NCBI GenBank assembly: GCA_016776635.1
Contig: JADHSZ010000004.1
Coordinates: forward strand, 16,777-80,776
Origin: Alphaproteobacteria bacterium
Lineage (GTDB): Bacteria; Pseudomonadota; Alphaproteobacteria; UBA11136
DNA: 64,000 nt
Direction: 5' to 3'
The translations under genes were made by a program, and so were the position numbers. The stretch's first letter is position 1, and every line of letters begins with the position of its first letter. Positions 33,837-62,300 of this stretch are shown here, piece by piece. The notes under the pieces were generated by a model. That model was not told the origin of the DNA, did not search any database, and saw only the letters and a list, made by a program, of their open reading frames with translations.

Positions 33837-33971
33837 TAGCGGTAATGTGCGGAAAAGATTGGCGTCCCCTAGGGGAGGGGATGTCAAAACCATAAAAACC
33901 GCAGAAAACTGCGATTCTCTCCGAAGCTCCATAAGCAATTGCTACGGAATTGCTACAGTATGGAGCCACCA

Positions 33972-35603: not shown

Positions 35604-35708
35604 CATATTGATATTTTTTCTGGTTTGGAGGGAGGCCTTTTTTGGCCATCTATTCCTTCAGACCCACAGTTCGATAAACCAAAATTGATTTTTCAAAATG
35701 GATAACAA

Positions 35709-37037
35709 ATGCCATATGACGATGACTATTCAGAACCAAACATAGAAGATTCCCTCAGCGAACAGCAGCATGAAAGAGGCCAAGAGCTAGACTTCTCCGA
35801 ACCTCTGGATATTCATCTCACAACCACCTCACCTCAGTTTTTAGGGGCCGTTGAGCTATTGCTCAGCCAGCTTCGTCAGACTGAGGCCGCAAGGATAGGT
35901 AACCTGGGTAAGATGCGACAGGCTCTGACCATGGTGCTGGCCAACTTGTATCACAATCATGCTCTGCATCCGGATCGCTACACCGCTTATGCCAGAAGCC
36001 CTTCTCGCTATTCCGTAATCCCTCGCTATAACAGGCTCGATATCAAATGGACGCCTGTAAGACGTGTTGCCGATGGGCTTGGGGAGTTAGAGTATGCAGA
36101 ACTTGTCCCGGGTTTCTTCAATCACGATTGGGGGAGAGGGAAACTATCACGCATAAAGGCAACCCAACCGCTCATTAACTTCCTCGAACAGCAAGCCATC
36201 ACTTTCGACATGATCAGGCCTGCTCCGGATGAAGAGGTCATCATCCTCAGGGACCAGGACAAGAAAGACATCGACTACAAGGACACACCTGAAATCAGGC
36301 GAATGAGGGAATCACTGCTTGCCTATAATTCCCACATCGAAGAGGCGGAGATTTTCCTCTCACCAGATTGCGAAGCTCAAATGGCTTCGGCTTCGATATT
36401 CATAAATTACAACAAGAAAAGATCGCGCAGAATCTTTAATCGGGAATCTTTCGATCAAGGAGGCCTTTTCTATGGCCCATGGTGGCAAAACATACCGAAA
36501 CATCTTCGCAAACACATCCTCATCAATGGCAACCCCACTGTGGAACGTGATTACAGCGCGATGCACATTCATCTCCTCTATGGAATGGAGGGGCTAAATT
36601 ATTGGGATTTTTTTGAGGAAAACGATGACCCTTACTTTCTGCCAAATCAGCCTGCAGGTGTAAGAGATTTCATGAAGAAGGTTTTCTGGACTGCTGTTAA
36701 TACCGAAAGCTCTACTAAGGCTAAGCTATCTCTGTTTGACAAGTATGGTCTGAACGAAGCTTACAGGGGTATGGATATCTATGGCCTCATAGATGCTTTC
36801 AAAGAGAAACATAGCCGTATCAGCCATAATCTCTTCACGTGCATTAGCCGCGAACTACAAAACAAGGGGTCTGGAATTTCTGAATTTGTAATGATGTCTC
36901 TGATGGACGAGGGCATTATCGCTCTCAACATACATGACAGCTTCATCGTGGAAACGAACCACAAAGAGATTTTAGATCAAAGGATGCATGAAGCTTTTTT
37001 GAATTTAGAGCTTCCTTCAATCCCAAATATTCATTGA
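35709..37037 (+). CDS. Island hypothetical protein, possible HUH-type rolling-circle replication initiator
   Basis: 442 aa, AT-rich codon usage. SAMHIHLLYG contains a His-hydrophobic-His motif; Tyr-rich segment downstream (KYGLNEAYRGMDIYGL). Inference only. Confidence 0.35.
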   Translation: MPYDDDYSEPNIEDSLSEQQHERGQELDFSEPLDIHLTTTSPQFLGAVELLLSQLRQTEAARIGNLGKMRQALTMVLANLYHNHALHPDRYTAYARSPSRYSVIPRYNRLDIKWTPVRRVADGLGELEYAELVPGFFNHDWGRGKLSRIKATQPLINFLEQQAITFDMIRPAPDEEVIILRDQDKKDIDYKDTPEIRRMRESLLAYNSHIEEAEIFLSPDCEAQMASASIFINYNKKRSRRIFNRESFDQGGLFYGPWWQNIPKHLRKHILINGNPTVERDYSAMHIHLLYGMEGLNYWDFFEENDDPYFLPNQPAGVRDFMKKVFWTAVNTESSTKAKLSLFDKYGLNEAYRGMDIYGLIDAFKEKHSRISHNLFTCISRELQNKGSGISEFVMMSLMDEGIIALNIHDSFIVETNHKEILDQRMHEAFLNLELPSIPNIH

Positions 37038-37340
37038 TTTCAATATATTAAGATTATTTATGTAAAAACCAAGTAAACCTTGATGCCCTACATTATATAA
37101 TACATACCCTGTTACTAGAACATTTTTTACTTATTAAGTGTTTCACCAGTGTTTATAAGCATCATCAGAATAGAGATTTGTCGTATTGCAAATACGATTT
37201 TCCTAGGAAAACTTGGGTTATCAGGCCTACCCTTTTTAAAGGAAAAAGTATGATCTAAGACCAGATAATACGGTTATGACATGGGAACAGTCATGCTCCA
37301 ATGGCGCAGCAATAATCGTAAATTCTGAGGGATAATAATT

Positions 37341-37928
37341 ATGCAACTCAACATAGACGAAAACAAATTGGGGATTGTCGCGGGAATATTATTCTGGATT
37401 ATTGTTGCCCCCATGGCATGGGACAGTGTCTCGCCAAGCTATGAATGTCCCCAAAATCCTCCCTGTCAATCATACGAGATGGTAGAGGTAGAGGATACGG
37501 GCAGCAAAATTACAGTAGTATTATTTACTACAGCCGCAGCTTTCGGAATATATGAGATGTTCCCGCTGGTGTTTTTTCAATCGATTGGCTGGGTCTTTTC
37601 GATGTTTTCTTCCCGACCTCCAGATGACATGACCCCTGGCTTTGGTGATTGTTATTATGATCCCACTATCGCCTCTGAATTGTTGGGTTTTAAGGAACCT
37701 GCTTTGATTAAACTTTTAGAGAAGGGAACACTCCGCGGCAGAAAAGACAGTTCCGGCAACTGGGAAGTTGATTTGGTTGAGGGCACATCCAATGTTGCAA
37801 TCGCCGCATACAAAATGGATCAAAGTGAGTCTGCCATTTATGAAAAATTGGAGTCTGGAGATTTACAGGGATATAAATTACCAAATGGAAAATGGCGAAT
37901 TATAAATAATTCCAATCCCAAATTATGA
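37341..37928 (+). CDS. Island hypothetical membrane-anchored protein with C-terminal excisionase/MerR-like HTH
   Basis: N-terminal transmembrane helix. C-terminal ASELLGFKEPALIKLLEKGTLRGRK...GYKLPNGKWRI resembles excisionase-family DNA-binding domains. Confidence 0.4.
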   Translation: MQLNIDENKLGIVAGILFWIIVAPMAWDSVSPSYECPQNPPCQSYEMVEVEDTGSKITVVLFTTAAAFGIYEMFPLVFFQSIGWVFSMFSSRPPDDMTPGFGDCYYDPTIASELLGFKEPALIKLLEKGTLRGRKDSSGNWEVDLVEGTSNVAIAAYKMDQSESAIYEKLESGDLQGYKLPNGKWRIINNSNPKL

Positions 37929-38242
37929 CAAACCAAGCATTAGGAAAGAATAGACCCATAAAATGCCTCCAGGATGCCCCCAGATTGATGGCATCTATTC
38001 TTATGGGGCATAGCAGTCTAGGCCTTCTGATGCGAGTCCTCGGCGCTCTGACAGCGATGCGCCCCTATTCAAGGTCAGAGCTAGGACATATCTATATCTG
38101 CTGTTGACCATAAGCGAACATTGAGGGCGGTTTGAGTAGCCCTTAACAAGATTTTCACCTCAAAGAACTTGCCTTTATTTCTGGATAAATCATCCGAAAT
38201 CCGTCTTAAAATGAACCGCCGGTAAGACGAGGAGGAAAATCA

Positions 38243-39526
38243 ATGCTTTTTCGCATCATAATACTTTCAATTTTTTTTCTACCCCCCTTTTGGGGATCAA
38301 ATGTTTTAGCCGCTGACACAGAAAAAATTTTTGAAGAGGCCGCCAATTACACGGTGAAAATCAATGCAAGAATACAGGATGCTTTTATCGAGGATGAGCC
38401 AGGCTCAACCGAAGGAGCAGGGTTTGTTGTCGATATAGACCGTGGGTGGATCATCACAAACGCCCACATAGTTGGATGGTCCCCCTCTAAAGTAACAGTA
38501 ACTTTCATTGATGGATCAACGGCAAAAGCAAGAAAAATTTATGTTGATCCCTCTACACACAGAGACATAGCCGTATTAGCCATAAACAAAAACTCTGCCC
38601 CTGACGATTTGGTTGCAGCACCATTGGACTGTGATCAATGGCCAGCTACAGGACATCCTGTTGGGGCCTATGGCCATCCGTATGGATTTGAATACACGGG
38701 AACCCAGGGAATCATTTCAGGGATATCAGAAGAAGACTCAAGCTTATTGGTGGATGCTGCCATTAATCCTGGTAATTCAGGAGGCCCACTTCTCAGTTTA
38801 GATACAGGAAAAGTAGTCGGAATTAACACCTCATCTGTCGATGATGAATATGATCAAAATACAAATTTTTCTGATCCAATATTTTTTTCCTGTGACATCC
38901 TCGATCTCCTAAGGGACGGCATTGACCCTTCACCACCAAAATTTCCCGTAATGTTCCTGGGACAGTCCCTGATCGTAGCCAAAAACAATCTCTCAAAGGA
39001 GGCATTGGACCTGAAACCTGACGATGAAATCATGGGGGTAAAAGGGTATGACGGCTCAATATATAATTTGTCTGATTTGTTCTATGCCCTTCGTGGCAAC
39101 TATGAAAATTTCACCCTGATAATCAGAAGAGGAGACAATGAAATAGAAATTCCTGGCCATCTTCAGCCGGAACCCCTTGTTATCGATCGCAAGGGGATAA
39201 AATTTTCAGGAATACTCATTGGTAGAGGGCCAATCTTCGACAACTCGGAAATCATTAAAGCAGAAAAATTACCGGTCATACACAAGGTTGCTCCGGGTTC
39301 TCTGGCTGAAGAGAATGGCTTCCAAGCCGACAATATCATCTTAGCTGTTGATGGCAGACAATATACGAACCTTCAAATTTTGTATGATTATCTAGATAAA
39401 AGGCTTAAAGAAAAACAGTCTGTAACATTTAAAATGGTAACTAAATCATCGTCAGATTGGGCCTTTTTTGACTATGGTAAAAGTGAATTGGAGATTGAAA
39501 ATCTAGAAATGATTTCAGCCAGGTAA
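38243..39526 (+). CDS. Secreted trypsin-like (S1/DegP-like) serine protease
   Basis: Signal peptide. Catalytic triad context TNAHIV, RDIAVL, GNSGGPLL. C-terminal PDZ-like region. Confidence 0.7.
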   Translation: MLFRIIILSIFFLPPFWGSNVLAADTEKIFEEAANYTVKINARIQDAFIEDEPGSTEGAGFVVDIDRGWIITNAHIVGWSPSKVTVTFIDGSTAKARKIYVDPSTHRDIAVLAINKNSAPDDLVAAPLDCDQWPATGHPVGAYGHPYGFEYTGTQGIISGISEEDSSLLVDAAINPGNSGGPLLSLDTGKVVGINTSSVDDEYDQNTNFSDPIFFSCDILDLLRDGIDPSPPKFPVMFLGQSLIVAKNNLSKEALDLKPDDEIMGVKGYDGSIYNLSDLFYALRGNYENFTLIIRRGDNEIEIPGHLQPEPLVIDRKGIKFSGILIGRGPIFDNSEIIKAEKLPVIHKVAPGSLAEENGFQADNIILAVDGRQYTNLQILYDYLDKRLKEKQSVTFKMVTKSSSDWAFFDYGKSELEIENLEMISAR

Positions 39527-39545
39527 GGAAGTTCATTGAAAACCG

Positions 39546-40193
39546 TTACTTTGAACCCTTCTTCTTGGTTGGACGTGATTTTGGCTTGGCCTTTCTAACC
39601 TTCTGAGGCTTGGCCTTTTTCGTAGTCGTTTTTCCTTTGTCCGCTGATTTAGTGCCTTCTTTTTGTTTAGTCCTTTTACCCTTACCGGCTGATTTCGTGC
39701 CAACCTTTTTCTTTATTTTTTTACCTTTTTCGCTCGCTTTCCCGGAAGTTTTTTTCCTGGTCTGTTTGCCTTTTTTTGGCACCGGTTTTTGTTTTCTGGT
39801 GGCTATGATTTCAGGTTCCTGTTCAGGTGAACCTGTATCCGGACCTGGAAGAAACATCATTTCCGTCGGCATGCTTATGCCTGAACTAAATAAATACGCT
39901 AATTCCTGATATTCAACACTAGATTTGTCCGCATGTCTTGGTTGCAGCTCTTCCTTTAGCTGCCTCAGCCAGGCCTTTCCGTTCATTTTAACGAGAAGAT
40001 TAAACCCATCACTTAAGTCCATCGCATAGCTCGTCTCCATCCGTTTTTGAGGGACGGACGCTTTCATTAATTCCCGTTGGGTGGCCATTGACATGATTAC
40101 ATGAAAGCCCTGTGGGGCAGCGCTTGGTTCACTCTCAACAAAAATATTAGCCATTATCAAATCTTTAAAAAAAATGCCCCCACCGCCACCCAT
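39546..40193 (-). CDS. Island hypothetical protein with histone-H1-like Lys-rich C-terminal tail
   Basis: 215 aa. The last roughly 80 residues are KKGKQTRKKTSGK...KKAKPQKVRKAKPKSRPTKKKGSK. Confidence 0.4.
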   Translation of the reverse strand: MGGGGGIFFKDLIMANIFVESEPSAAPQGFHVIMSMATQRELMKASVPQKRMETSYAMDLSDGFNLLVKMNGKAWLRQLKEELQPRHADKSSVEYQELAYLFSSGISMPTEMMFLPGPDTGSPEQEPEIIATRKQKPVPKKGKQTRKKTSGKASEKGKKIKKKVGTKSAGKGKRTKQKEGTKSADKGKTTTKKAKPQKVRKAKPKSRPTKKKGSK

Positions 40194-40532
40194 TCAACAT
40201 ATCTGATGTCAGAAAATGGAAGGAGGAGACTTCCACTTGAGCATTTAAAAAAAATTATATTTCTGACAATTCGATGATCTAACCCCGGCACAGGAGGAGA
40301 CTGAAGGCATGTTCCATCAGTTGATATGAGAAAAAGGTAATAATTCTTATCAATGTTCATTGCAGGTTGTTCCTATGGGCTGGACATTTTGTATTCTTGG
40401 CTTTGCTGATCTAGAGATATTTATCCAATCCGGTGTAGCAAACTCAGCAATTCGGCCTGCTTTGTTCTGGCTTGATCTCTTTGTGTTTTATGGCCCACCA
40501 CCATAAGATGAATATCCTCTGGGAGGAAAGCA

Positions 40533-40766
40533 ATGGAAGCAATTAAGGATTTTTTTGGATACCTGTTTGGGTCAGCAGTAGGCTTAGCACTAATGGGTTC
40601 GATGTCTCTTGGGATGGCTTATTGGGTCTGGATGGCCATTCAATTAGGCAGCTTTCTCATGTTCGCAGCACTGTTTTTCCCACCCACGATGATCATCGCA
40701 GCACCCACAGGATTATACTCTTTTATATTTGGAGCGCCTGAGTGGGTGATAAATATGTTCGGTTGA
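40533..40766 (+). CDS. Small hydrophobic protein (77 aa, two transmembrane helices)
   Basis: ORF preceded by GGGAGGAAAG. Hydrophobic throughout. Confidence 0.25.
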   Translation: MEAIKDFFGYLFGSAVGLALMGSMSLGMAYWVWMAIQLGSFLMFAALFFPPTMIIAAPTGLYSFIFGAPEWVINMFG

Positions 40767-41048
40767 TACCACTAGACTCAGCGACTAGACCCTAGACCGA
40801 GCAGCAAACGCCTACCTCAAAATTTATTATAGAAATTTCTGAGCCACCTTTCCTTCTCATAAAGAGGCCACCCCTGCCCCCCTGGTGCCCCCTTCTTCGG
40901 CTTATCCCTGTGAAAAAACTTCCATAGCAAAGAGGCCCCCCGCACCGTTAAGAAATTACTACAGAATTGCTACGGTAAGGTGTAATATAGGGGTGCTTTT
41001 GGGCTTCGGAAAGCCGCAGAAAACTGCATAAAACAGCCGTTTTAGTAG

Positions 41049-41124
41049 TGGCGTCCCCTAGGGGATTCGAACCCCTGTTGCCGGCGTGAGAGGCCGGTGT
41101 CCTAGGCCTCTAGACGAAGGGGAC
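41049..41124 (-). tRNA. tRNA-Glu (anticodon CUC)
   Basis: Reverse complement GTCCCCTTCGTCTAGAGGCCTAGGACACCGGCCTCTCACGCCGGCAACAGGGGTTCGAATCCCCTAGGGGACGCCA folds as a cloverleaf and is nearly identical to E. coli tRNA-Glu apart from the anticodon loop (CTCTCAC). CCA is encoded. Confidence 0.85.
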
Positions 41125-43218: not shown

Positions 43219-44607
43219 TTAAGGCGCGGAGCCGAGCACGAATTCCCCTATGGAGGTTTCGGTCCAGGGGCTGATGCCGGTGGCCTCGGCGAAGAGACGG
43301 GAATCCCCGGTGCCGGTGCCGCAGGGCGCGAGCCCCATATCGGCGGCCACCAGATACAACACCTCGGTCACCACCCCGGCATTGGTGAGGGTGGTACGAT
43401 AGGCCATGCCCTGGTATTTCCAGGCGAAGCGCGGCATACGGGTGGTAATCACGATTATCATGTCGGGGAACGGCCCCTCGGCCATACCCATGGCGGCTGA
43501 CGCGCGCCTGACGATTTTATCCACCACCTTTTCCGTCCCCTCCAGAGCCACCAGGGCATGGGCGAGACCGTCATAATGATAGAAAAGGGGTTCCATATCC
43601 GCCACCCGGCGCACCGCAATATAAAACTCCAACTCGTTGATAGAGCCGCCCGCGGGATAGGGCCGGGACAAAACATCCTGCAGAGAGCTTTCCTTCACCT
43701 CCTTGATCCGCGCCACGCGATAGAGAAATTCCCCAAGGGTTTCCAAATTCATGGGTTCGGGGCCGGATTCGCGCACCGACTTGCGGTTCTCCATGACGGA
43801 AAGCAGCGGATGGCTGTCGATGCTGCCGTCCTCGAGGTTGGGCTTGGGCAGGTCTATCACCGTCCCCGGCATGGTGGGTTTGAGTGCCGGGGCCGAGGGA
43901 AACGCATCCTTGAAACGGTAGGTGCCGCCGACAATGTCGGTTTCCGTATTGTTGCGGCTCCATTCATGAATCAGCCGGTCCTGAAATTCCCAACAGCGCC
44001 GGTCCAGGTCTTCTTCCTCCTCCGCCGGCTCCAGGAACCCCGCATAAAAGAGCAGTTCCCCCGGCCCACCGGCGGAAACGGGCTTTCCGGCCTCACCACC
44101 GCCATCGAAAAGAAATCCCGAGAAAGCCTTCGCCGCCCCAGGAAGAACCGTGATGCGGCAGGGGGTTTCGCCCGATTGCAGGACCATGTCTTCCCCGTCG
44201 CGGCGCAGATAGGCGAAGCGGGAAAAGCGCCATGCGTCTTTGGGAAGTCCTCCTGAATAAAAGGCGAAGGAATTGGAGGGGCTGACGGCCACCGCCAGGT
44301 CCTTGCCGTCGCGGCGCAGGACCAGTTCCAGCAGGCGCGGACGGCACATACGTTCGAGATAATAGGACAGTGCCTTTGCGGATTCCTCTCCGCCATCACC
44401 ATCTCCGGCGGCGAGTTTCCTTAAATGCTCAAGGGTTGCGCCATCACCGAACAGAGCCAGCAACGCCTCGGCAATACCTTCGGACTCGGGCTTGAAGCGC
44501 AGGGTTTTCCAGTCCGGAACCGTAATGGCGATATGATCGCCATCGCGCGCCACGGAGTCCACCTCCGCGCAGAACCGCCAGATAACTTCCGTTTTGGCCG
44601 ATGCCAT
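43219..44607 (-). CDS. SagB/ThcOx-type dehydrogenase (nitroreductase fold) with long N-terminal extension
   Basis: C-terminal approximately 200 aa: MENRKSVRES...PYPAGGSINELEFYIAVRRV...APCGTGTGDS fits the FMN-dependent SagB-type dehydrogenase pattern. Confidence 0.65.
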   Translation of the reverse strand: MASAKTEVIWRFCAEVDSVARDGDHIAITVPDWKTLRFKPESEGIAEALLALFGDGATLEHLRKLAAGDGDGGEESAKALSYYLERMCRPRLLELVLRRDGKDLAVAVSPSNSFAFYSGGLPKDAWRFSRFAYLRRDGEDMVLQSGETPCRITVLPGAAKAFSGFLFDGGGEAGKPVSAGGPGELLFYAGFLEPAEEEEDLDRRCWEFQDRLIHEWSRNNTETDIVGGTYRFKDAFPSAPALKPTMPGTVIDLPKPNLEDGSIDSHPLLSVMENRKSVRESGPEPMNLETLGEFLYRVARIKEVKESSLQDVLSRPYPAGGSINELEFYIAVRRVADMEPLFYHYDGLAHALVALEGTEKVVDKIVRRASAAMGMAEGPFPDMIIVITTRMPRFAWKYQGMAYRTTLTNAGVVTEVLYLVAADMGLAPCGTGTGDSRLFAEATGISPWTETSIGEFVLGSAP

Positions 44608-44625: not shown

Positions 44626-45681
44626 TTAAAGAAAGAAGGGGATAGGATTGAGTTCGGATTCCTTGTTCGGCTTGTCGAGCCAGCCCATCTTCACCGGCAC
44701 GTCGTAAAGACGGCCCGGCGCGAACCGCGCCCAGAAATGCCGTATGCCGGGCACCACCACCCGGGCGCAGGAAAAATCAACTTCCGGCCGGGAGTGATCG
44801 AACACCAGCATTTCGAGTCCCTGTTCCTCGAATTTCCCGCGCGCGTAGTCCACATCATCGGCCAGGGTCGCGCCGTTAAAACTGGGCATATCCCCGAGGG
44901 CCACGGCGGGAAGCGCATCGGGCTTGAGATAAGTCTGGTTCTCCAGCGTGGCGGTGCGGAACCAGTCGGCAATGGCCCCCTCGGGCTCGGTATCCCCTTC
45001 CTCGGCTTCGAGGAATCCGGTTTCCAGTTCCAGCATCTGGTTCAATTCACTGTAAGCCCGGTTCAAGGCCACCAGGGGGTCGAGATGGGCGCCCAGCCCG
45101 AACATAATGCTCTTCCCGTCACGATGGCCCACGGCGATAATCACCGGAATGCCGAAATCCTGGGTCAGGTCGAGGGCGTAAAAGGCAAGCCCCAACTCTC
45201 CGTAATGGCGCTCCATGCGCCGCAGGAACGGCAACTCCACCGAAGAGGCGTCCTCGGTGAGCACCGGGCGTTCGCGGATTTCCAGTTCACTGGTGACCTC
45301 CCAGCGGTTGCCGGGCAGCGGGCGGGCGGCGAACTGGCGGGTGAAGCGGGCCTCGTGGGTGACCAAGCCGAGGCCGCCCAGGAGGTCGATCCCGAACCAC
45401 TCGCCGCCTTCCTTGGCGTGCCAGCGGTACCAGGCCTCGAACAGGGCGAACTGATCTCTGCGCAACACCCAGCGCACGGAAATCCGGCTCGGCACGCTCG
45501 TGAACCGACGCCGCTGCCGCGCCGGTCCCGCTTCCATCTCGGTGCGCAGAATGGCCTCGCCGGGATGGACGCCGTAGCCCTCGATGGAGGGCAACGGCAG
45601 GGTGGCGGGCCAGGAGATAGACACGGGGGATCCTTGTATTCCATGGACATCAATCCATATATGAGCTACAATGTAGCCCAT
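44626..45681 (-). CDS. Chimeric ORF: gpM-like phage minor tail protein (N-terminal approximately 140 aa) fused in frame to the C-terminal half of a YcaO-domain protein (truncated YcaO)
   Basis: N-terminus WPATLPLP...AKEGGEWFGIDLL...RWEVTSELEIRE is shared with repeats at 46235-46540 and 47151-47385. C-terminus has YcaO-like DLTQDFGIPVIIAV, GLGAHLDPLVALNRAYSELNQ, ARVVVPGIRHFWARF and terminal NPIPFF. Confidence 0.5.
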   Translation of the reverse strand: MGYIVAHIWIDVHGIQGSPVSISWPATLPLPSIEGYGVHPGEAILRTEMEAGPARQRRRFTSVPSRISVRWVLRRDQFALFEAWYRWHAKEGGEWFGIDLLGGLGLVTHEARFTRQFAARPLPGNRWEVTSELEIRERPVLTEDASSVELPFLRRMERHYGELGLAFYALDLTQDFGIPVIIAVGHRDGKSIMFGLGAHLDPLVALNRAYSELNQMLELETGFLEAEEGDTEPEGAIADWFRTATLENQTYLKPDALPAVALGDMPSFNGATLADDVDYARGKFEEQGLEMLVFDHSRPEVDFSCARVVVPGIRHFWARFAPGRLYDVPVKMGWLDKPNKESELNPIPFFL

Positions 45682-45683
45682 AT

Positions 45684-45956
45684 ATGGAGGTTCAAATCAT
45701 GAGCACCGTTGTTCGCGCACGCATCGACGAGAAGGTGAAGGACGATGCCGCCGCCGTGCTGGCTTCGATCGGGCTCACCGTTTCCGACGCCTTCAGGTTG
45801 ATGATGGTGCGCATCGCCACCGAAAAGCGGCTGCCTTTCGAACCGCTGGTACCCAATGCTGAAACCATCGAGGCCATGAAGGCGGCGCGGCGCGGCGACG
45901 TGATCACCGTCGGCGACGTAGAAGACCTGATGGCCGACCTGCATGCGGACGATTAG
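45684..45956 (+). CDS. RelB/DinJ-family antitoxin
   Basis: About 85 aa. RARIDEKVKDDAAAVLASIGLTVSDAFRLMMVRIATEKRLPF is typical of DinJ. Confidence 0.75.
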   Translation: MEVQIMSTVVRARIDEKVKDDAAAVLASIGLTVSDAFRLMMVRIATEKRLPFEPLVPNAETIEAMKAARRGDVITVGDVEDLMADLHADD

Positions 45957-46224
45957 ACGCACCGGAGCCTTCAAGCGCGACTATAAGCGCGAGAATAAGG
46001 GCCGGCACGGCAAGACGCTCGACGCTGGCCTGTCGAAGGTAGTGGCCATGCTGGTTGCCGATGAGCCGCTGCCAAAGCGTTACCACGACCATTCTCTGGC
46101 CGGGGAATGGAAGGACCACCGGGACTGCCATATTAGGCCCGACTTGGTGCTGATCTACCGCAAGCCGGACGCCGAAAACCTCGATCTGGTACGCCTCGGC
46201 TCACACGGCGAACTTGGCCTATGA
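45943..46224 (+). CDS. YafQ/RelE-family toxin (mRNA interferase)
   Basis: 93 aa. FKRDYKRENKG...LAGEWKDHRDCHIRPDLVLIYR. Overlaps the antitoxin stop. Confidence 0.75.
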   Translation: MRTIRRTGAFKRDYKRENKGRHGKTLDAGLSKVVAMLVADEPLPKRYHDHSLAGEWKDHRDCHIRPDLVLIYRKPDAENLDLVRLGSHGELGL

Positions 46225-46240
46225 CCTTTTCTCGCTACCG

Positions 46241-46540
46241 ATACGCCCCCGCCGCCGGGTTAAGACCGTAGCGGCGCTCCAGGGTCAGCACCAAGCCCTC
46301 GCCGCCTTCCTTGGCGCGCCAGCGGCGCCAGGCCTCGAACAGGGCGAACTGGTCCTGGCGCAACACCCAGCGCACGGAGATGCGGCTCGGCACCTGGGTA
46401 TAGCGTCTGCGCTGCCGCGCCGGCCCGGCTTCCATCTCGGTGCGCGGAATGGCCTCGCCGGGATAGACGCCGTAGCCGTCGATGGTGGGCAGCGGCAAGG
46501 TGGCGGGCCAGGTGATGGGCGTGGGATTGTTCAACTCCAT
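46241..46540 (-). repeat. Junction repeat B: gpM 5' part fused to tape-measure 3' end (...AKEGGEGLVLTLERRYGLNPAAGAYR*)
   Basis: About 85-90% DNA identity to 45401-45640 and 47155-47385. Ends with the same about 45 bp as the tape-measure 3' end (47991-48050). Confidence 0.7.
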
Positions 46541-46605
46541 CCCTCTAGATCATATACGGCAATGCCGTATGTTTTTCTTGTGATGTATCCGGCAATGCCG
46601 TATGA

Positions 46606-46887
46606 TTGCGTATGCAGATCGAATTTGACCTCGACAAGGACGCGGCCAACCAAGCCAAGCACCAGGTTTCACTTTCCTTTGGCGCTCGAGTGCTGGCGGA
46701 TACCAACCGGTTGGATGTTCTTGATGTGCGGTTTGACTATGCCGAAGAACGCTTCGTTTCCTATGGCATGGTCGATAAGCGGATTTGGGTCTGTGTATTC
46801 ACCCCGCGCGGCGACATGTACCGCGTTATCAGTGTGAGGAAAGCCAATGACCGCGAAACACAAAGATACCACGACACCCCCCGGTGA
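46606..46887 (+). CDS. BrnT-family toxin (DUF497)
   Basis: 93 aa. FDLDKDAANQAKHQVSLSFGARVLAD...RFVSYGMVDKRIWVCVFTPRGDMYRVISVRKANDRE. Confidence 0.7.
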   Translation: MRMQIEFDLDKDAANQAKHQVSLSFGARVLADTNRLDVLDVRFDYAEERFVSYGMVDKRIWVCVFTPRGDMYRVISVRKANDRETQRYHDTPR

Positions 46888-47137
46888 ACCGGATGCCGAC
46901 GCGCCGCTCACTGACGACGAATTCCAGCGGGGATACACCGCAATGCTGGCCCGTCGAACTCGTGCTGAAACCGGCCTTTCACAGCGGGCTTTTGCCGAGC
47001 GCTACGGCATTCCAGTGGCCTCTTTAAGAGACTGGGAACAGGGCCGCCGGACGCCCGACAATGCCACGCAAAGCTACCTGCGAGTTATCGCCAAAATGCC
47101 TGACGATGTGGCAAAGGTTCTGCACGACGCAGCCTGA
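46847..47137 (+). CDS. BrnA-family antitoxin (HTH)
   Basis: 96 aa. LSQRAFAERYGIPVASLRDWEQGRRTPDNATQSYLRVIAKMPD. Overlaps the BrnT 3' end. Confidence 0.7.
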   Translation: MTAKHKDTTTPPGEPDADAPLTDDEFQRGYTAMLARRTRAETGLSQRAFAERYGIPVASLRDWEQGRRTPDNATQSYLRVIAKMPDDVAKVLHDAA

Positions 47138-47154
47138 CGTTTCTTAATGCTCAA

Positions 47155-47385
47155 TCAATAACTCCCCGCCGCCGGGTTGAGACCGTAGCGGCGCTCCAGG
47201 GTGGGAGCCAGTCCCTCGCCGCCTTCCTTGGCGCGCCAGCGGCGCCAGGCCTCGAACAAGGCGAACTGGTCCCGGCGCAGGACCCAGCGCGCGGAGATGC
47301 GGCTCGGCGCCTGGGTGTAGCGCCGTCGATGGTGGGCAGCGGCAGGGTGGCGGGCCAGGAGATGGTCATGGGATTGCTAAATCCA
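47155..47385 (-). repeat. Junction repeat C: gpM 5' part with internal roughly 75-bp deletion/frameshift plus tape-measure-3'-end-like terminus
   Basis: caataactccccgccgccgggttgagaccgtagcggcgctccagggtgggagccag... is the same start as the tape-measure end at 47991. Encodes MTISWPATLPLPTIDG... out of frame. Confidence 0.65.
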
Positions 47386-47442
47386 AGGGAAAATGGCATT
47401 CTTTGCCAAATTATGCCATAACCACCAAGACTGGAGGCGCCT

Positions 47443-47676
47443 ATGGCCACGATGAATGTTTCTCTGCCAGATCCCATGCGGGAATGGGTGGAAAGCCAGA
47501 TAAAGGGCGGCAAATACGCCAATGCCAGCGATTATATTCGTGATCTCATCCGTCACGATCAGCGTCGCCTTCATGATTTAACGGCAGCGATTACCGAGGG
47601 CATGGAGAGCGGGCGCAGCCCGCGCAAGGCGGAGGACGTCATGAAGGCAGCCAAGACCCGGCTGCAAAATGGCTGA
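47443..47676 (+). CDS. ParD/CopG-family (RHH) antitoxin
   Basis: 77 aa. MATMNVSLPDPMREWVESQIKGGKYANASDYIRDLIR. Confidence 0.75.
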   Translation: MATMNVSLPDPMREWVESQIKGGKYANASDYIRDLIRHDQRRLHDLTAAITEGMESGRSPRKAEDVMKAAKTRLQNG

Positions 47677-47983
47677 CTACGTCCTTTCCAACAAAGCCGA
47701 TGCCGATCTTGACGGGATCTATGTCTATTCGTACCGGACCTTCGGCGAGGCCAAGGCCGATGTCTATTTTCTTGGCCTATGCGACGGCCTGAAAAGGCTG
47801 GCGGCCAACCCTCGCCATGGCCGTTCCCTTGACCATGTCTGGCCAGGGTTGTTCTGTGATCGTTGCGCTCGCCACATCATCTTCTACACGATCGAAGAGG
47901 ACGGCATATTCGTTGTGCGTATTTTGCACGATTCCATGGACGCCTCGCGCCACATTGATTTGGAAGAAATGGACAGTAACTGA
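47669..47983 (+). CDS. ParE/RelE-family toxin
   Basis: 104 aa. Overlaps the ParD stop. Typical ParE length and RelE/ParE-fold context. Confidence 0.7.
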   Translation: MADYVLSNKADADLDGIYVYSYRTFGEAKADVYFLGLCDGLKRLAANPRHGRSLDHVWPGLFCDRCARHIIFYTIEEDGIFVVRILHDSMDASRHIDLEEMDSN

Positions 47984-47989
47984 TCGTCA

Positions 47990-50899
47990 TCAATAACTCC
48001 CCGCCGCCGGGTTGAGGCCGTAGCGGCGCTCCAGGGTGGGAGCCAGCCCCTCGCCACGCCCGATGTTGCGGGAAAGCCGTCCCTCCACCTTCTCAACCAC
48101 GATGTCCAGGCCGAGGTTGCCGTTGCCGTCCCGGCGTGTTTGAACCTTGGCTTCCGTTCCCGGCGCCCGGTTGTCCACGTTGACGGTAACCTTGACCTCT
48201 GGTTTTTCCCCCAGTCCCGCGCCCAGCACCCGCATCTGGCCGGGCGTGAACACGGTCTCGCCGCGCGTGGCGATGATGGGGACCTCGGAACCGATGACAC
48301 CGCCGGAATGAAACCGGGGGGCGGAATCGAACACCGCCGGATCAACGGAACGGGCGGCAAGATGGTCGCTCCCAATGACGCCGCCGGCATGGGCGATCTG
48401 TACCGGCCCGCCGCCGGCGTCTTGAATGGTCCCGCTACCCCCGAACAGACTACTGCCGATGGAGCCGAACACGTTCTCCAGGAGGCCGCTGAAGGGCTTG
48501 ATGACGGCCATGCGGTAAGCGGCGCGCAGCGCCTCCTCGGCGATGGTGTTGAACAGGTCGGCGGCGCTGAACTTGCCGGTGGCCGCCCATTGGACGAAGG
48601 CGTCCTCGCCGGCCTTCAACGACCGGGTCGTGACCTGTTCGAACTGCTTGGCGGCATTGGACGCCTCGTCGGCGTAATCGCGCAGGGCCCGGATCACGCC
48701 CGCCGACCATTCCCGGCTGGCCCGCAGCATGCGGTCATGGGCGTTCTCGGAGGCCCGTGCGAAGGTCTCCTGGGCAATCGCTCCCTCGTCCAGCAGCCGG
48801 TTTAAATCCGCGATCTCGGCCTTGTAGGCTTCCTCCGCGGTGCGGAGGCTTTCCGTGAGGGCGCGGCCCTTCTCCTTGAGCTTGGCGGCATCGGTCTCGG
48901 CTTTGTTGCGGGCCTCCATGGCCTGTTGCTCGTCGAACAGGGCGCCGGCCAGTTCCCGCACCTGGCTCCGCTCGGCATCGGCCGCCTCCGCCGAGAGTCT
49001 CCGTAATGCCTGGGAGACGAACCGCTGCCGGTCGGTCATGGCGAGCGCGTCATGCTCGGCTCGAAGCCCTTCGATGATCTTGCGGTTGGCTTCCGTGATC
49101 CGCTCAGTTGTCTCCTGTTCCCTTGCCGCCAATCTCGCCAGCTTGGCGTCGCGGACCGCCGCCGCTTGGGTTCTCAGGGCATCCACTTGGGCTTGGTTGC
49201 TTTCGTCCGGGGCCAGCAACGCCTCCACGTCCTTGGCCAGCCGTTCGTACTCGGCCCGGATGCGGTCGGCCCCATCATGGGTCAGGGTGAACAGTTGCCG
49301 CTGCAAGTCCTTCTCAATTTGCGCGACCCGCTTGGCCCGGTCCTGAGCCGCCTTGATGTCCACTTCGACGGAACCGGAGGGGCCGCTGGGCTTGATCGCC
49401 GGGCCAGGCTTGCCTTCCTTGTCCCTCTGCATCCACGCCAGCTTTGCCGCCCATTGCCGGTAGACGGTTGTCTTTTCCTCCAGCTGGCGTTCCAGGGCCA
49501 CCTTGCGGCCCCAATCGAGTGCGTCGTCCAGGAACCCGACGTCGCCCAGTTCCTTCAGTTCATGGGCGATCTCCCGGAGCTCGGCGCGGCGTTCCTCGAC
49601 GATTGCCCGGGTGCTCCCGAGGCTCAAACCTTCGAAGTCGTAATCCCCTCCGGCCAGGAGCTTGAGTTGTTCGTAGGCGACGCCGGCCTGGCCGGCGAGT
49701 CCGGCAAGATCCTTGACCGCGGCGGCGACGCCGGGCGCCAGGTCCTCGCCGATGGACCGCGCGAGGGATTTGATGTTGTTCCACATCAATTCCGTCTGGT
49801 TGTTCAGGCTTTCGAAGGCTTTCGCCGCTTCCTCGTTCAATGCGGTGGCGTTTTGGGTCTCGCGGTTGGCAAGCTCGAGAGCTTGGGCCAGCAGGTCGGC
49901 GCGGTTCGCCAACACCGGGATGGTCTTGAGCAGACGCTGGTCAGCCAGGCCCAATGCCGCCATGGCGTCCGCCGTCGAACCGCCGGCGTCGCTGACCCGC
50001 TTCAGCCCCTCGATGAACAGGACAAAAGCCGCCGTGGAATCCTTTTGGAATAAATCCTTGATCTCTTCGCCGGTCCTGCCGGTGATCTTCGTGAGGATGT
50101 CCAGATGCTCCCCTCCGCTACGGACGGCGGCGTCCATCATGCGCATAACCCGTCCGATGGAGGTGCCCGCCACCTCCGACTTGACGCCGACGGCGGCCAG
50201 CGCAGCGGCCAGAGCCGTGGCCTGGGCGGAACTCACCCCGAAGACGGCGGCGCCGCGGGCGATCTCCGTGGCCATGTCGGCGATCTGTCTTTCCGTGGCG
50301 GCGAAGTTGTTGCCCAGCGCGACGATCACCGAGCCCAGCACATCGACCTTGCCCATGGCCTCGCCGGTGATATTGAGAATGCGCGCCAAGGCCATGGCCG
50401 CGTCATTGCCGCTGAGGTCCGTCGCCGTGCCCAGCTTGGCGACGGTCTCGGTAAACTTCAGGATGTTGGACGCCCCCTTCACCCCGAGCTGACCGGCGCT
50501 CTGGGCGATGGCCAGCAACTCGTCGGTGGCCACGGGCAAGCGTTTGGAAAGGGCGTCGATGTCCTTACCGAGGGACGCCAGTTCGCTCCCGGACAGGTTC
50601 GCGGTCTTGCCGACGCCGATCAGCCCGGCCTCGAAATCGGCGTACAGCTTCACCATCTCGTGCAAGCCGCGGACGGCCCCGCCGGCGGCGATCACCCCGT
50701 AAAGGAGCTTCATGCGCCGGCCCAGGGATTGAGCGCGGTCGGAGAGCCTGGAGAGCCCCCGGGACGCTTTGCCTCCCGCCGTCTCGATCTTCTTGAGGGA
50801 CCTGTCGCCGGTCCGGCCCACATCCTTGAGCTCGGCCTTGACCTTGCCGCCGCCGTCTACCGTGAGGCGGATGGCGTAGGTGTGTTTGGCCCTGGCCAT
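47990..50899 (-). CDS. Phage tail tape measure protein
   Basis: 969 aa, Ala/Glu-rich coiled-coil throughout. Lies downstream of the G/GT chaperones. C-terminus ...GEGLAPTLERRYGLNPAAGSY is shared with the junction repeats. Confidence 0.85.
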   Translation of the reverse strand: MARAKHTYAIRLTVDGGGKVKAELKDVGRTGDRSLKKIETAGGKASRGLSRLSDRAQSLGRRMKLLYGVIAAGGAVRGLHEMVKLYADFEAGLIGVGKTANLSGSELASLGKDIDALSKRLPVATDELLAIAQSAGQLGVKGASNILKFTETVAKLGTATDLSGNDAAMALARILNITGEAMGKVDVLGSVIVALGNNFAATERQIADMATEIARGAAVFGVSSAQATALAAALAAVGVKSEVAGTSIGRVMRMMDAAVRSGGEHLDILTKITGRTGEEIKDLFQKDSTAAFVLFIEGLKRVSDAGGSTADAMAALGLADQRLLKTIPVLANRADLLAQALELANRETQNATALNEEAAKAFESLNNQTELMWNNIKSLARSIGEDLAPGVAAAVKDLAGLAGQAGVAYEQLKLLAGGDYDFEGLSLGSTRAIVEERRAELREIAHELKELGDVGFLDDALDWGRKVALERQLEEKTTVYRQWAAKLAWMQRDKEGKPGPAIKPSGPSGSVEVDIKAAQDRAKRVAQIEKDLQRQLFTLTHDGADRIRAEYERLAKDVEALLAPDESNQAQVDALRTQAAAVRDAKLARLAAREQETTERITEANRKIIEGLRAEHDALAMTDRQRFVSQALRRLSAEAADAERSQVRELAGALFDEQQAMEARNKAETDAAKLKEKGRALTESLRTAEEAYKAEIADLNRLLDEGAIAQETFARASENAHDRMLRASREWSAGVIRALRDYADEASNAAKQFEQVTTRSLKAGEDAFVQWAATGKFSAADLFNTIAEEALRAAYRMAVIKPFSGLLENVFGSIGSSLFGGSGTIQDAGGGPVQIAHAGGVIGSDHLAARSVDPAVFDSAPRFHSGGVIGSEVPIIATRGETVFTPGQMRVLGAGLGEKPEVKVTVNVDNRAPGTEAKVQTRRDGNGNLGLDIVVEKVEGRLSRNIGRGEGLAPTLERRYGLNPAAGSY

Positions 50900-53563: not shown

Positions 53564-54187
53564 ATGCGAACCTACGTCTACATCGATGGGTTCAATCTTT
53601 ACTATCGTGCGCTGAAGGGAACTCCGTGAAAATGGCTCGACCTGATGGCTCTCTTCAGGGCTGTCCTGCAGGGCCATCACAGGATCGAGTGCATCAAGTA
53701 CTTCACGGCGCGGGTAACAGCCACGCCCGACGATCCCTCGAAGCCCCAGCGACAGGATGTCTATCTCCGGGCCCTGCGGAACCATGTTCCCGAGTTCGAA
53801 GTCCATTTTGGCCATTTCCTTACTCACCGTGTTCGCGCGCCTCTCGCCAAACCAACAGAAGGGAAGCGATTCGTAGAGATCATCAAGACCGAGGAGAAGG
53901 GTTCCGACGTCAATCTCGCCGTGCATCTGTTGAACGACGCTTGGCTTGACCGATACGACTGCGCCATCATTGTTTCCAACGACAGCGACCTCGCGGAATC
54001 CATGCGGCTCGTCAAGGAACATGGCGGCAAGACCATCGGTTTGATCACACCAGGCAAAAGTCATCCGTCTCGACAACTTCTCAAACACTCGGATTTTGCG
54101 CGGCATATCCGTGCATCGGCGCTACGAAGCTGCCAACTGCCGAGTCCCATCCCCGGCACGAACATCCGTAAACCGGACCACTGGTGA
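53564..54187 (+). pseudogene. NYN (PIN-like) domain protein, moron on the opposite strand within the prophage, with in-frame TGA at 53627-53629
   Basis: GAGGAG RBS, MRTYVYIDGFNLYYRALKGTP-TGA-KWLDLMALFRAV...DCAIIVSNDSDL. Conserved NYN motifs lie on both sides of the stop. Confidence 0.55.
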
Positions 54188-59395: not shown

Positions 59396-62300
59396 TCATT
59401 TGAGCCAGTTTCCTCTGCGGTTGCCGAGCCAGTCGCCGCGATGTCCTGACGCCGGGCGCGAGGGGCGCGTCTTCGACCCGGATGGGCGTTGTTGCTTGGT
59501 CTTGGGTGCCGGATCGCCGCCCAGGGAATCCACGAACTTGCGCCAGTGGCGTTCCTCGAAACGATCCAGGCCGACCACGGCCACCGCCGCCCGGGCGTAG
59601 ACGTAGCAATCCAGCGCCTCGTTGCGTTCGCGCAGCTTGCGCCATTCGCGAACGGCATAGCCGCGCCTGTTCTTGGTGGTCACCAGTTGCTCGGAGCACA
59701 GTTGTTTGCAGTACTCGCCATCGACCTTGGGCAGGTGGACATAACCGGCTGGATAAATCTCACCGGCTTTCAATTCTTCGTCGGTCGGGCGTTCCTTGCG
59801 CAGGTTGTTGAATAATTCCAACTTAGCGATGCCGCCGGCCACCGGGCGCACCTTGACGCCGCGCCGGAGCCGCTTGCCTCCCGCCGTGATGTCGACGGCG
59901 GTCGGCATGCCGACCAGGGCGGCGCCCCGTTCCACGCCCTTGATGGCCATGACCAGTCCAGCGTGTTGGCGGCGCGCCCAGCTATAGACCTCCTGGGTTG
60001 CGTAACCGGAATCGACGGCCAAACGCTTGAGCGGCATCTGGACGCCGGAGGCATGGCTCCAGGTCTCCGACAGCATCTCTGTCAGTTCTTTCCAGACCTC
60101 CTCGCGAGATGTGTCGCCGTCGATCACCCGGTGCTCAATTAGCCACGACTCCTTGTCTCTTCCCCAGGCCCAGATGGAAACCTCGATACGGTCTTTCTGA
60201 ATATCGACGCCGGCGGTGAGAAGCAGGCCGCCCTCGGGCACCGTGCCCTCACGGTAATCCTCGCGGCGGTCATAAAGGCGCTGCCAGTCGGGCGCCTCTC
60301 CGACTTCTTCCCAGGTCTCGCCCAGGTCCGTGTTCTTCACCGACTTGACCGCCGCGTCGGAACCCTGCGCCGCCAGCCAGGCCCCGGCGATCTGCTTCCA
60401 CGACCGCCAACCCACCGGGCTGTACAGGCTGGATAGATGGAACCCCGCTGTCTTGCCGTTGTCGTTCTCCGGTTTGGCCGTCGCCCGCCACTCGCCGTTC
60501 TCCAGCATCCAGGTCTTGTGATGCTCCTCGATGCGGGCCTGGCAGTGTTCGCATTCGTAAGATGCGGTTTCCGGCTTGCCCTTCTCCCATTTCAACTGCT
60601 CGAACTTGAGCCACTGGTGTTTACGGCAGACCGGACAGGGCACGAAGTAACGGCGCTGGTCGGACGCCTCGTACTCGCGCTCGATCCGGGACGCCCCACG
60701 GATGGTCGGCGTCGAGACGATCAGGATTTTGCGCCGCGAGAACGTTCGGGTCCTGGCCTCGGCCAGGGCGACGGGATCGCCTTCGCCGTCAATGTCGCCG
60801 GGATAGCCGTCCACTTCGTCCAAAAACAGGTAGCGCACCGGCATGGAACGCAAACCGACGGCCGAGTTGGCGCCGGTCATCACCAGGACGCCTCCGGGGA
60901 ACTCCTTGGCCAGCACCGTGTTGCCCGCGTCCCTGGAACGCGCCGGCTTGACGAGCTTGCGCAACGCCGCGCTCTCCTCGATCAGCGGGTCGATCCGCTG
61001 CTTGGAGTTGCGCTTGGCCATCTCGACCGTGGGCAGCACCGCCAGCATGGGCCCCGGCGCGTGATGGATGACGTATCCAATCCAGTTGTTGCCGGCTTCG
61101 GTGTTATGGGTCGGTATCCAGCCTTTTCCGCAAAGGTAAAGGTGATTTGGCGAGTCGACCGAGATGCAGCGAACCGGAACACTCTTTACGGGTCTGATGG
61201 CGACTATCCGGCGACGACGGCTTCTGGAAGGACGTCCAGCCCGGATCAAACGCATACGCTCGACCTTTCGGGACAGCTTGAACATGGGTTCTTCCTGGTA
61301 GGCCGTCCAGGTAACCCGCCAGCCGGCCAGTGTCTCGCATATCTTATTGCCGCCCGGGAACATTCTTCGTTTTGACGGAGTCCGGTGAACGCTCGGCTTG
61401 TAACCAAGGCTGCGAAGCAATTCCGCCATGGAGTCGGCTAGGCCAGCATTCGTGTTGCCGAATTCACACCGCTTGCCATCCGAGGAAATAAATCCATCGG
61501 AATCCATCAACCCACGGACAAGCTCAAGCCTTTGCTCTCTGCTTGCCCGCATGTATTGGGGAGGAACATGTTTGTTATCGAGCAAATCGAGCATGAGAAG
61601 CCGAACGGTGAATCTGGATCGCCCCTTGGGCGTCACCGGTCGATTGGGGTTTTGATCCAACCTGTAAGTTGGATCGATAATGATGTTGGCGCATTTCCCC
61701 TTGCGCCACTTCGGCAGCCTAAATTCGGCAACAACCCCACAGGAGCGGAGATGCTCGGCGGCTTCCGTGTCGTCCTCATGGACACTGATGTGGTTCATGA
61801 TGGCGTTTCCGTCCCCGAGCCAAAACCCGAGAACATAGGGATGGATGATCAGGTCCTGCTCGGGTAAATCCAAGGGGTCGCAACAATCCACGGCATATCG
61901 ATAGCGTTTGCTTTTTCCGATACGGACGCGCCAGATCATCTCCTCGGTCCGGAGTACCTTCGCGACGGGCTTGTCGTTGGTGAAATCCATCACCGGCCAG
62001 CGGTGTGCGCCATCGCAAACAACCCGTTCTCCATCATCGAAGGTGATTTCAAAGCATTGCCGCCCGGTCATCACCTCGGACACGCTGGTCACTCTGCAGA
62101 ATCGCCCCTTTTCGTCAAAAAGCGTATCGCCGACCATGAGCGTCCCCATGGTTTTCCAGCCAACCGCCGTAGGAATTGGCGTGTCGACGGCCAGCGGACC
62201 GCCGATCTGGGCGCCCTTCATCAGGACCACCCGCTCGACCTTCGAGGCCGGCGCGAGACAGTCCATGATCTCCTTGAGATACGGCGTGCGGCCGGTGCGC

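Follow-up and report, generated by a model that had tools for sequence, protein, structure and literature searches.

Three toxin-antitoxin operons in series, separated by chimeric gene fragments, between the tape-measure and gpM-like genes of an alphaproteobacterial prophage remnant

A window of 64,000 nucleotides from contig JADHSZ010000004.1 of an alphaproteobacterial genome (GTDB lineage UBA11136; assembly GCA_016776635.1), to whose first position all coordinates refer, contains three different toxin-antitoxin (TA) pairs in series. They lie between the tape-measure protein gene (TMP) and the gpM-like gene of a prophage, and all six of their genes are on the plus strand, antisense to the phage genes, as a preliminary description of this DNA had recognized. 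The cassettes are held apart by two chimeric joints, each made of gpM codons 1-75 and the last 19 TMP codons with the stop, fused at a GGCGAG that both genes share. We think it likely that the array is a recombination scar at a moron hotspot, and that its units were joined by unequal recombination between relatives that each carried one cassette.

Chimeric joints between the cassettes

In a four-way alignment, GGCGAG occupies positions 45400-45405 in the gpM copy, 46298-46303 in the first joint (J2), 47215-47220 in the second (J3) and 48050-48055 in TMP. The last 19 codons of TMP (47990-48049, downstream of this motif) are the segment duplicated in J3 and J2. A repeat search recovered the duplications as three-copy families of 168 nt (72-89% identity) and 67 nt (82-97%) with a spacing of about 900 nt, and a degenerate pattern specific to the joint matched twice in the window, with no match expected from 100 shuffles. 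The chimeric repeats reported between the cassettes in the preliminary description are thus real, and so is their composition of a gpM 5' end and a TMP 3' end; only their extent needs revision, from about 90 gpM codons and about 15 TMP codons to 75 and 19.

The two joints have decayed differently. In J3 (47155-47369, minus strand; repeat search and alignment), the TMP 3' copy at 47155-47214 is 96.7% identical to the end of the resident TMP, and the gpM 5' fragment at 47215-47369 has suffered a frameshifting internal deletion of 70 nt between 47323 and 47322. In J2 (46235-46522, minus strand; repeat search and alignment), gpM codons 1-75 (46298-46522) are followed by a diverged TMP 3' copy (46235-46297) that is 78-80% identical to the other two copies. 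J2 is an intact open reading frame (ORF) of 101 aa at 46235-46540 and J3 is not intact. The native ATG of J2 has become ACG, and two residues that are invariant in 44 homologues are changed (Leu26Pro and Tyr66Arg).

Because a joint keeps only two of the seven strands and one helix of the modelled gpM fold (75 of 158 residues), and because invariant residues are mutated, J is, as far as sequence goes, a pseudogene, a non-functional fragment chimera. We also considered J2 as a functional decoy protein, which is unlikely given the same truncation and the two mutated residues, together with the loss of its native start and the frameshift in its sister J3. The consequence for annotation is that the ORF of 99-101 aa at J2, which would be called a hypothetical protein, is a gene-fragment chimera and not a gene. 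A similarity between the TMP tail and a stretch of the YcaO gene described below (25 nt, 76%; repeat family D10) was treated as chance.

A hotspot between the tape-measure and gpM-like genes

We compared the array with about 156 related loci that encode a TMP end and gpM, drawn from one-per-species genomes and IMG/VR. The preliminary description had proposed that an uninterrupted TMP/gpM junction be sought in related prophages; such a junction was found, with a spacer of 2-52 nt, in 118 of them. In the other 38, one insert of 215-1805 nt, in most cases antisense, separates the two genes. The cargos found at this position include ParDE, RelB-YafQ, BrnT, DUF4238, a nucleoside-deoxyribosyltransferase-like protein, a HEPN/RES-NTD protein and unknowns. 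No second gpM 5' or TMP 3' fragment was present in any of these loci, nor in the six BrnT single-cassette contigs. The TMP/gpM junction is a classic hotspot for morons and other accessory genes.

All three cargos of the array also occur singly. Relatives with ParDE as the only cassette are L004, L087, L096 and L189, and those with RelB-YafQ are L042, L048, L108 and L184. BrnT stands alone in L170-L175, six further metagenome contigs in which the cassette is flanked by a full TMP and a full gpM; IMG/VR held no relatives of the BrnT cassette, and these loci were found only via a protein database. Unit A of the array, with ParDE, is 90% identical to L087 over 535 nt and 73% identical to L004 over 797 nt, from the TMP 3' end through ParED into the gpM 5' end. 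Unit B, with BrnT and its helix-turn-helix (HTH) partner, matches L170/L171 at 93% over 924 nt, from right after one joint to the next joint. Unit C, with RelB-YafQ, is 86.7% identical to L184 over 979 nt and 76% identical to L042/L048 over 1054 nt.

Since each unit aligns, flanks included, to a single-cassette relative, the alignments indicate that the array is a head-to-tail concatenation of three segments, each running from a TMP 3' end through a TA operon to a gpM 5' end, that come from different relatives and not from recent duplication. A simple recent tandem duplication was rejected, as the cargos belong to unrelated TA families and the flanks are 72-97% identical. The serial accretion of different TA cassettes at one phage hotspot, as suggested earlier, is therefore borne out by the empty junctions and single inserts among relatives and by the match of each unit to a single-cassette relative.

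Several other loci deserve mention in their own right. In L185-L188 (e.g., L185, 412-1430), a different ParDE pair lies between a 44-aa scrap of the TMP C-terminus and a 16-aa scrap of the gpM N-terminus, in a non-phage context by a Hint-domain gene and a PemK-type TA pair, and this arrangement occurs in at least five metagenome samples. It has the look of a cassette left behind after its prophage was lost. In L183, a contig of 574 nt and 0.65 coverage with a BrnT-type single cassette, gpM breaks at 478 after GCCAGGGAA, 6 nt before the position of the joint, and the sequence beyond is unrelated and AT-rich; the break may reflect a chimeric read, or the J site may have a second breakpoint nearby. 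The long-read alphaproteobacterial metagenome-assembled genome (MAG) CBDFKJ01 has at least nine TMP-gpM loci (L031-L037, L052 and L060), six of them with identical match statistics, which indicates many copies of one prophage or of an element like a gene transfer agent (GTA). Lastly, L010, L095, L121, L020, L022 and L113 have RelB/YafQ-like pairs about 5-6 kb upstream of gpM that are 31-44% identical to the pair in the window, which suggests a second TA-bearing hotspot in this phage family.

Origin of the joints

The preliminary description attributed the array to repeated recombination at a microhomology. In that scenario, two independent illegitimate events would have used the same GGCGAG, which would explain why J2 and J3 have the same 6-nt joint and why their TMP-derived halves differ by 20%; the break in the low-coverage contig L183, 6 nt upstream of the joint site, could be taken in the same sense. 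The gpM side of the joints speaks for a common origin instead. Identity between J2 and J3 is 93.3% over gpM nt 118-222, with no other sequence closer than 88.6% to either of them, and both have TAC changed to CGC at Tyr66, a two-nucleotide change at a codon that specifies Tyr in 162 of 163 relatives. Among retrieved proteins, position 66 is Tyr in 113 of 114, the sole exception being the J2 ORF. The gpM 5' and TMP 3' regions share 36 6-mers (GGCGAG is one of these), 14 7-mers and 3 8-mers, so that reuse of the same motif by chance is unlikely. In the BrnT-type relative L170, the corresponding TMP site reads GGCGAC, and the microhomology is not conserved. Independent events at this motif thus seem improbable to us.

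Because J2 and J3 share the derived change at Tyr66, are mutual closest relatives, and are joined at one of many available microhomologies, a single origin of J is the most economical explanation: probably one illegitimate crossover made J, which was then duplicated by homologous unequal exchange. The different fates of the TMP-derived halves, of which that in J3 is much closer to the resident TMP than that in J2, imply further homologous exchange near the joint. Identities of individual segments did not locate the crossover points in J3, since these segments (47-105 nt) are too short. Exchange in the neighbourhood is also suggested by TMP itself, which is mosaic between otherwise nearly identical assemblies of this population whose array differs at one site. 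Tracts of about 10-15% divergence cover 48600-49999 in L001 and L084 (144 differences in L001), and another divergent tract, with about 55 differences, covers 48190-48583 in L002 and L003. These tracts point either to an exchange of TMP segments between the remnant and related phages or to several related TMP alleles within one population.

We suspect the following history. In this phage family, TMP and the gpM/Dit gene normally abut, and in about a quarter of the relatives the gap is filled by one cargo gene or operon, antisense and presumably self-transcribed. An illegitimate unequal crossover at GGCGAG would have linked two genome copies, gpM codon 75 in one with TMP codon -19 in the other. 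These copies could have belonged to co-infecting phages, to a concatemer, to tandem prophages, or to a prophage and the phage superinfecting it. The outcome would have been a viable phage with two cassettes and with intact TMP and gpM, plus the non-functional chimeric joint. From then on, J together with the TMP 3' and gpM 5' flanks could have served as portable homology, and homologous unequal exchange would have duplicated J and added or swapped cassettes until there were three. The joints would subsequently have decayed by loss of the start codon, Leu26Pro, Tyr66Arg and the 70-nt deletion, and the remaining tail genes may later have been lost in a deletion that fused gpM to a YcaO gene of the chromosome.

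The nearest competitor is multiplication in place, in which a single unit of TMP 3' end, TA operon and gpM 5' end was duplicated and then triplicated by slippage at GGCGAG, and the cargos were later swapped by double homologous crossovers with incoming phages. A head-to-tail topology with a microhomology joint is classic for tandem duplication; the common ancestry of J2 and J3, the existence of single-cassette donors for all three cargos, and the TMP mosaicism that shows homologous exchange at this locus would all fit. Yet this route requires more events than the joining of whole units, and the left homology arm within the joint would be only about 60 nt. Cargo and both flanks align together to single-cassette relatives, which the joining of whole units explains equally or better. 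We consider multiplication in place unlikely, and it is really a variant of the favoured history and not a different mechanism. A more radical departure would be site-specific capture, with a recombinase inserting circular TA cassettes and the repeats acting as recombination sites. TA cassettes are common in chromosomal integrons, and a same-orientation array with a repeated separating element has that look, and the accretion had been called integron-like. That comparison does not hold. A motif scan found no IntI-type integrase in the window, where the only tyrosine recombinase is a 554-aa protein with DUF6538 and Phage_integrase domains (33939-35603) in a separate low-GC island at a tRNA-Glu about 10 kb off. 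The joints are chimeras of coding sequence that contain no paired attC cores (GTTRRRY/RYYYAAC) and no excess single-strand DNA folding (z = -0.65 to +0.14). Moreover, each cassette has its own promoter-like or operator region, and the 38 occupied hotspots in relatives are free of any repeat. Capture of this kind is very improbable.

An assembler could in principle have chained coexisting phage variants with different single cassettes, as single-cassette variants exist in metagenomes and as the differences in TMP between assemblies could reflect mixed populations. A microhomology of 6 nt cannot produce a false join in k-mer assemblers, and J2 and J3 have private mutations and the 70-nt deletion, which no true gpM or TMP shares. 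In eight further assemblies from this population, the array (3.4 kb) shows a difference at one site, and an identical array is found in the NCBI MAG, at least six ENA SPAdes assemblies from different samples, a JGI contig and a Logan contig. Given these at least seven independent assemblies and the private mutations of the joints, we exclude an assembly artefact for practical purposes.

Several observations weigh against the history that we favour, in which units from single-cassette relatives were joined by unequal recombination. The joint is seen in one lineage only, so the use of J as portable homology rests on two copies. The degenerate DNA pattern of the joint had no match in IMG/VR and one in JGI metagenomes, from the same population, and in a protein search the consensus joint peptide matched nothing but C-terminal fragments of TMP. 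Gene conversion in place between J2 and J3 could mimic common descent. Their TMP-derived halves are only 80% identical, which calls for at least one extra exchange very near the joint. The ratio of nonsynonymous to synonymous substitution rates (dN/dS) in the gpM part of J2 is 0.18-0.28, slightly above the 0.11-0.19 of the true gene, a signal too small to decide. PADLOC, applied to the TA proteins and J2, gave no match to a defence family beyond a weak HTH match. Finally, sequence alone fits three routes alike: unequal crossover of one phage with another, deletion between prophages in tandem, and duplication in place with replacement of cargo.

The toxin-antitoxin operons

Cassette A, next to TMP, encodes a ParD antitoxin (47443-47676, plus strand; Pfam ParD, 25.5 bits) and a ParE toxin (47669-47983, plus strand; Pfam ParE, 51.3 bits), with a TIGR02606 match of 62.8 bits. 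It is convergent with TMP, and the stop codons are 6 nt apart. Cassette B encodes a BrnT toxin (46606-46887, plus strand; Pfam BrnT, 76.9 bits) and an XRE/MqsA-like HTH antitoxin (46847-47137, plus strand; Pfam HTH_31/HTH_3 and NCBIfam). This pair had been described as BrnT-BrnA. The toxin is indeed BrnT, and its partner matches HTH_3/HTH_31, with a weak MqsA-like match, and is not the ribbon-helix-helix (RHH) protein BrnA (Pfam, NCBIfam). Cassette C encodes a RelB/DinJ antitoxin (45684-45956, plus strand; Pfam RelB, 64.8 bits; TIGR02384) and a YafQ/RelE toxin (45943-46224, plus strand; Pfam YafQ, 102.8 bits; TIGR02385). Genes overlap within all three operons, by 8 nt in ParD/ParE, 14 nt in RelB/YafQ and 41 nt in BrnT/HTH. 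For all three toxins, and for RelB and ParD among the antitoxins, scores exceed the curated Pfam/NCBIfam cut-offs (in bits, YafQ 30, ParE 23, BrnT 34.5, RelB 22.4, ParD 21 and TIGR02606 46.2).

Palindromes can be read in the sequence 5' of all three operons, and a promoter scan placed promoter-like sites before two of them, a count that is not above shuffles (2 called, 0.9 +/- 1.3 expected). The putative operator/promoter of ParD (47382-47442, plus strand) has the inverted repeats ATGGCAT...ATGCCAT and TGGCA-N5-TGCCA, and the promoter scan called no consensus promoter in this region. A putative BrnT operator (46553-46607, plus strand) consists of the palindrome ATACGGCAATGCCGTAT twice (direct repeat family D6), overlapping a promoter-like site at 46578-46606; these upstream ATACGGCAATGCCGTAT repeats are conserved in L171 and L183. 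The region 5' of RelB (45637-45683, plus strand) combines a promoter-like site at 45644-45672 with the palindrome CCATATATGAGCTACA/TGTAGCCCATATATGG.

Compared with single-cassette relatives, dN/dS is 0.07-0.22 for ParDE and 0.11-0.13 for RelB-YafQ, and BrnT is uninformative. Given these values of 0.07-0.22, the full-length matches to profile hidden Markov models (HMMs), and the upstream palindromes and promoter-like sites, the TA genes look functional, and the three operons look like intact, ordinary, autoregulated type II modules under purifying selection relative to their single-cassette counterparts.

The prophage remnant and its surroundings

The phage genes form a lambda-like siphovirus structural module on the minus strand, from 44.6 to 64 kb of the window (Pfam, PHROG). 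The module comprises terminase gpA, a lambda-family portal, a fused protease-capsid gene, DUF6441, a tail tube gene, chaperone-like genes and the 969-aa TMP (47990-50899, minus strand; Pfam PhageMin_Tail and Tape_meas_lam_C, PHROG tape-measure families). In a complete relative, gpM is followed by a 629-aa protein, DUF4376, DUF1833, NlpC/P60 and a GpJ-like protein, and the remnant in the window lacks all of these. With the tail genes after gpM missing and the terminal gpM truncated and fused to YcaO, the gene content indicates that the array resides in a defective prophage of a lambda-like siphovirus family of Alphaproteobacteria.

Full-length homologues of the gpM-like gene product have 157-159 aa and are very common in Alphaproteobacteria. 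The gene belongs to PHROG 384, and no Pfam or NCBIfam family was found for it. An AlphaFold model (predicted local distance difference test, pLDDT, 78.5) matched Sf11 gp17 (score 13.8), the lambda tail-tip protein M (8iyk_M; 10.1), the T1 minor tail protein (8.4), a chain of the RcGTA virion annotated as an uncharacterized protein (6tba_6B; 8.2) and T5 Dit (7.0). The label gpM-like, as used in the preliminary description, is justified by this predicted tail-tube-like fold and by the position directly after TMP.

The terminal gene itself (copy 1; 45247-45624, minus strand) runs from a GTG at 45624 to about codon 126, where it is cut and continues in frame into the C-terminal half of a YcaO cyclodehydratase (44626-45246, minus strand; Pfam YcaO, 104.3 bits), a truncation that the preliminary description did not include. 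The fusion ORF (44626-45681) is intact and encodes 351 aa, of which residues 148-314 match YcaO profile positions 160-325. At the fusion point, 45247/45246, GAGGACGCC passes into TCTTCGG, and this is the deletion edge of the prophage remnant. Apparently, one deletion took away the tail-tip genes of the phage along with the 5' half of a YcaO gene of the thiazole/oxazole-modified microcin (TOMM) type. A SagB-type dehydrogenase (43219-44607, minus strand) comes after the YcaO half.

Three further features of the window lie outside the array. The gpA large terminase (59396-62431, minus strand; 1011 aa) has a LAGLIDADG_3 domain (residues 299-353) ahead of its ATPase and nuclease domains, probably an intein or a homing-endonuclease insertion. 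Within the head-tail module, an antisense ORF of 180 aa (53645-54187, plus strand), annotated in the identical locus L176 as PF01936 NYN (a PIN-like RNase domain), is probably another moron of the same remnant. Finally, a separate island of low G+C content (33939-41124; 0.39-0.49, compared with about 0.6 in the flanks) carries the integrase gene mentioned above, an HTH_17-like gene and a trypsin-PDZ protease, and ends at tRNA-Glu(ctc) (41049-41124).

Discussion

Type II TA modules in general are known for addiction or stabilization, and possibly for abortive infection. By analogy, the most likely role of the three operons is addiction, such that this segment of DNA resists loss, and they may in addition provide abortive-infection defence. 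The deletion that truncated the prophage ends 390 nt from RelB. This proximity, and the survival of ParDE in L185-L188, are anecdotal, and they are consistent with TA operons resisting loss as prophages decay.

Our literature search found no description of this architecture, and the nearest known systems are morons, the hotspots of P2 and P4, shuffling by promoter early stem-loop elements (PeSLs) and orphan arrays of contact-dependent inhibition (CDI) modules (tandem arrays are mentioned in PMC4927057). Like the morons of HK97 and HK022 (reviewed in PMC3594210) and the hotspots of P2 and P4 (PMC9122126), the cassettes are presumably independent and often antisense units between late genes that abut in relatives, with variable cargo that includes TA and defence-type genes. 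Described hotspots hold alternative cargos, or several, without duplicated flanks, whereas here three stacked cargos are split by chimeric duplicates of core genes. With integron cassette arrays, the array has in common small cassettes in the same orientation, a repeated separator, and TA cargo that may stabilize the array. Unlike integrons, it lacks IntI, attI, attC and the cassette promoter Pc, its repeats are coding fragments, its cassettes have putative promoters of their own, and general recombination would be at work.

In T4-type phages, PeSLs mediate modular shuffling (Arbiol et al. 2010, PMC2839356), and short repeats that flank non-essential genes act there, and may act here, as portable homology for insertion, deletion and replacement, possibly via mini-circles. 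PeSLs are functional promoter-terminator elements that occur many times per genome, in contrast to a non-functional gene chimera in two copies. Downstream of cdiA and rhs genes, successive toxin/antidote modules accumulate, each of which keeps a fragment of a conserved neighbour gene as homology for exchange. The array resembles such orphan toxin-immunity tandem arrays in the tandem accumulation of acquired toxin/antidote modules with fragments of neighbouring genes. It differs from them in that both flanking genes are fused, where theirs are fragments of one gene, and in that the modules are self-contained type II TA operons and not parts of delivered polymorphic toxins.

A bolder version of the portable-homology step is that RecA or phage recombinases use J to capture TA or defence cassettes, excise them as circles, and reshuffle them among related phages. 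We regard this as a long shot, with which the stranded scraps of TMP 3' end, ParDE and gpM 5' end in L185-L188 would agree. If true, there would be a recombinase-independent, homology-driven analogue of the integron at the TMP/gpM hotspot, in which the TA operons shield the array from deletion and individual units outlive their prophage.

The array is a mechanistically informative variant of accretion at moron hotspots, but a single instance in a defective prophage. Accessory and defence hotspots of phages are well known, but sequences seldom show how several cargos came to be neighbours; in this array, the event is recorded in the joints. Unequal crossover between relatives with different cargos would yield a chimeric fragment of core genes, which in turn would provide homology for further stacking. 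Such stacking would offer a concrete way for a hotspot with one moron to become a small defence or addiction island within a phage.

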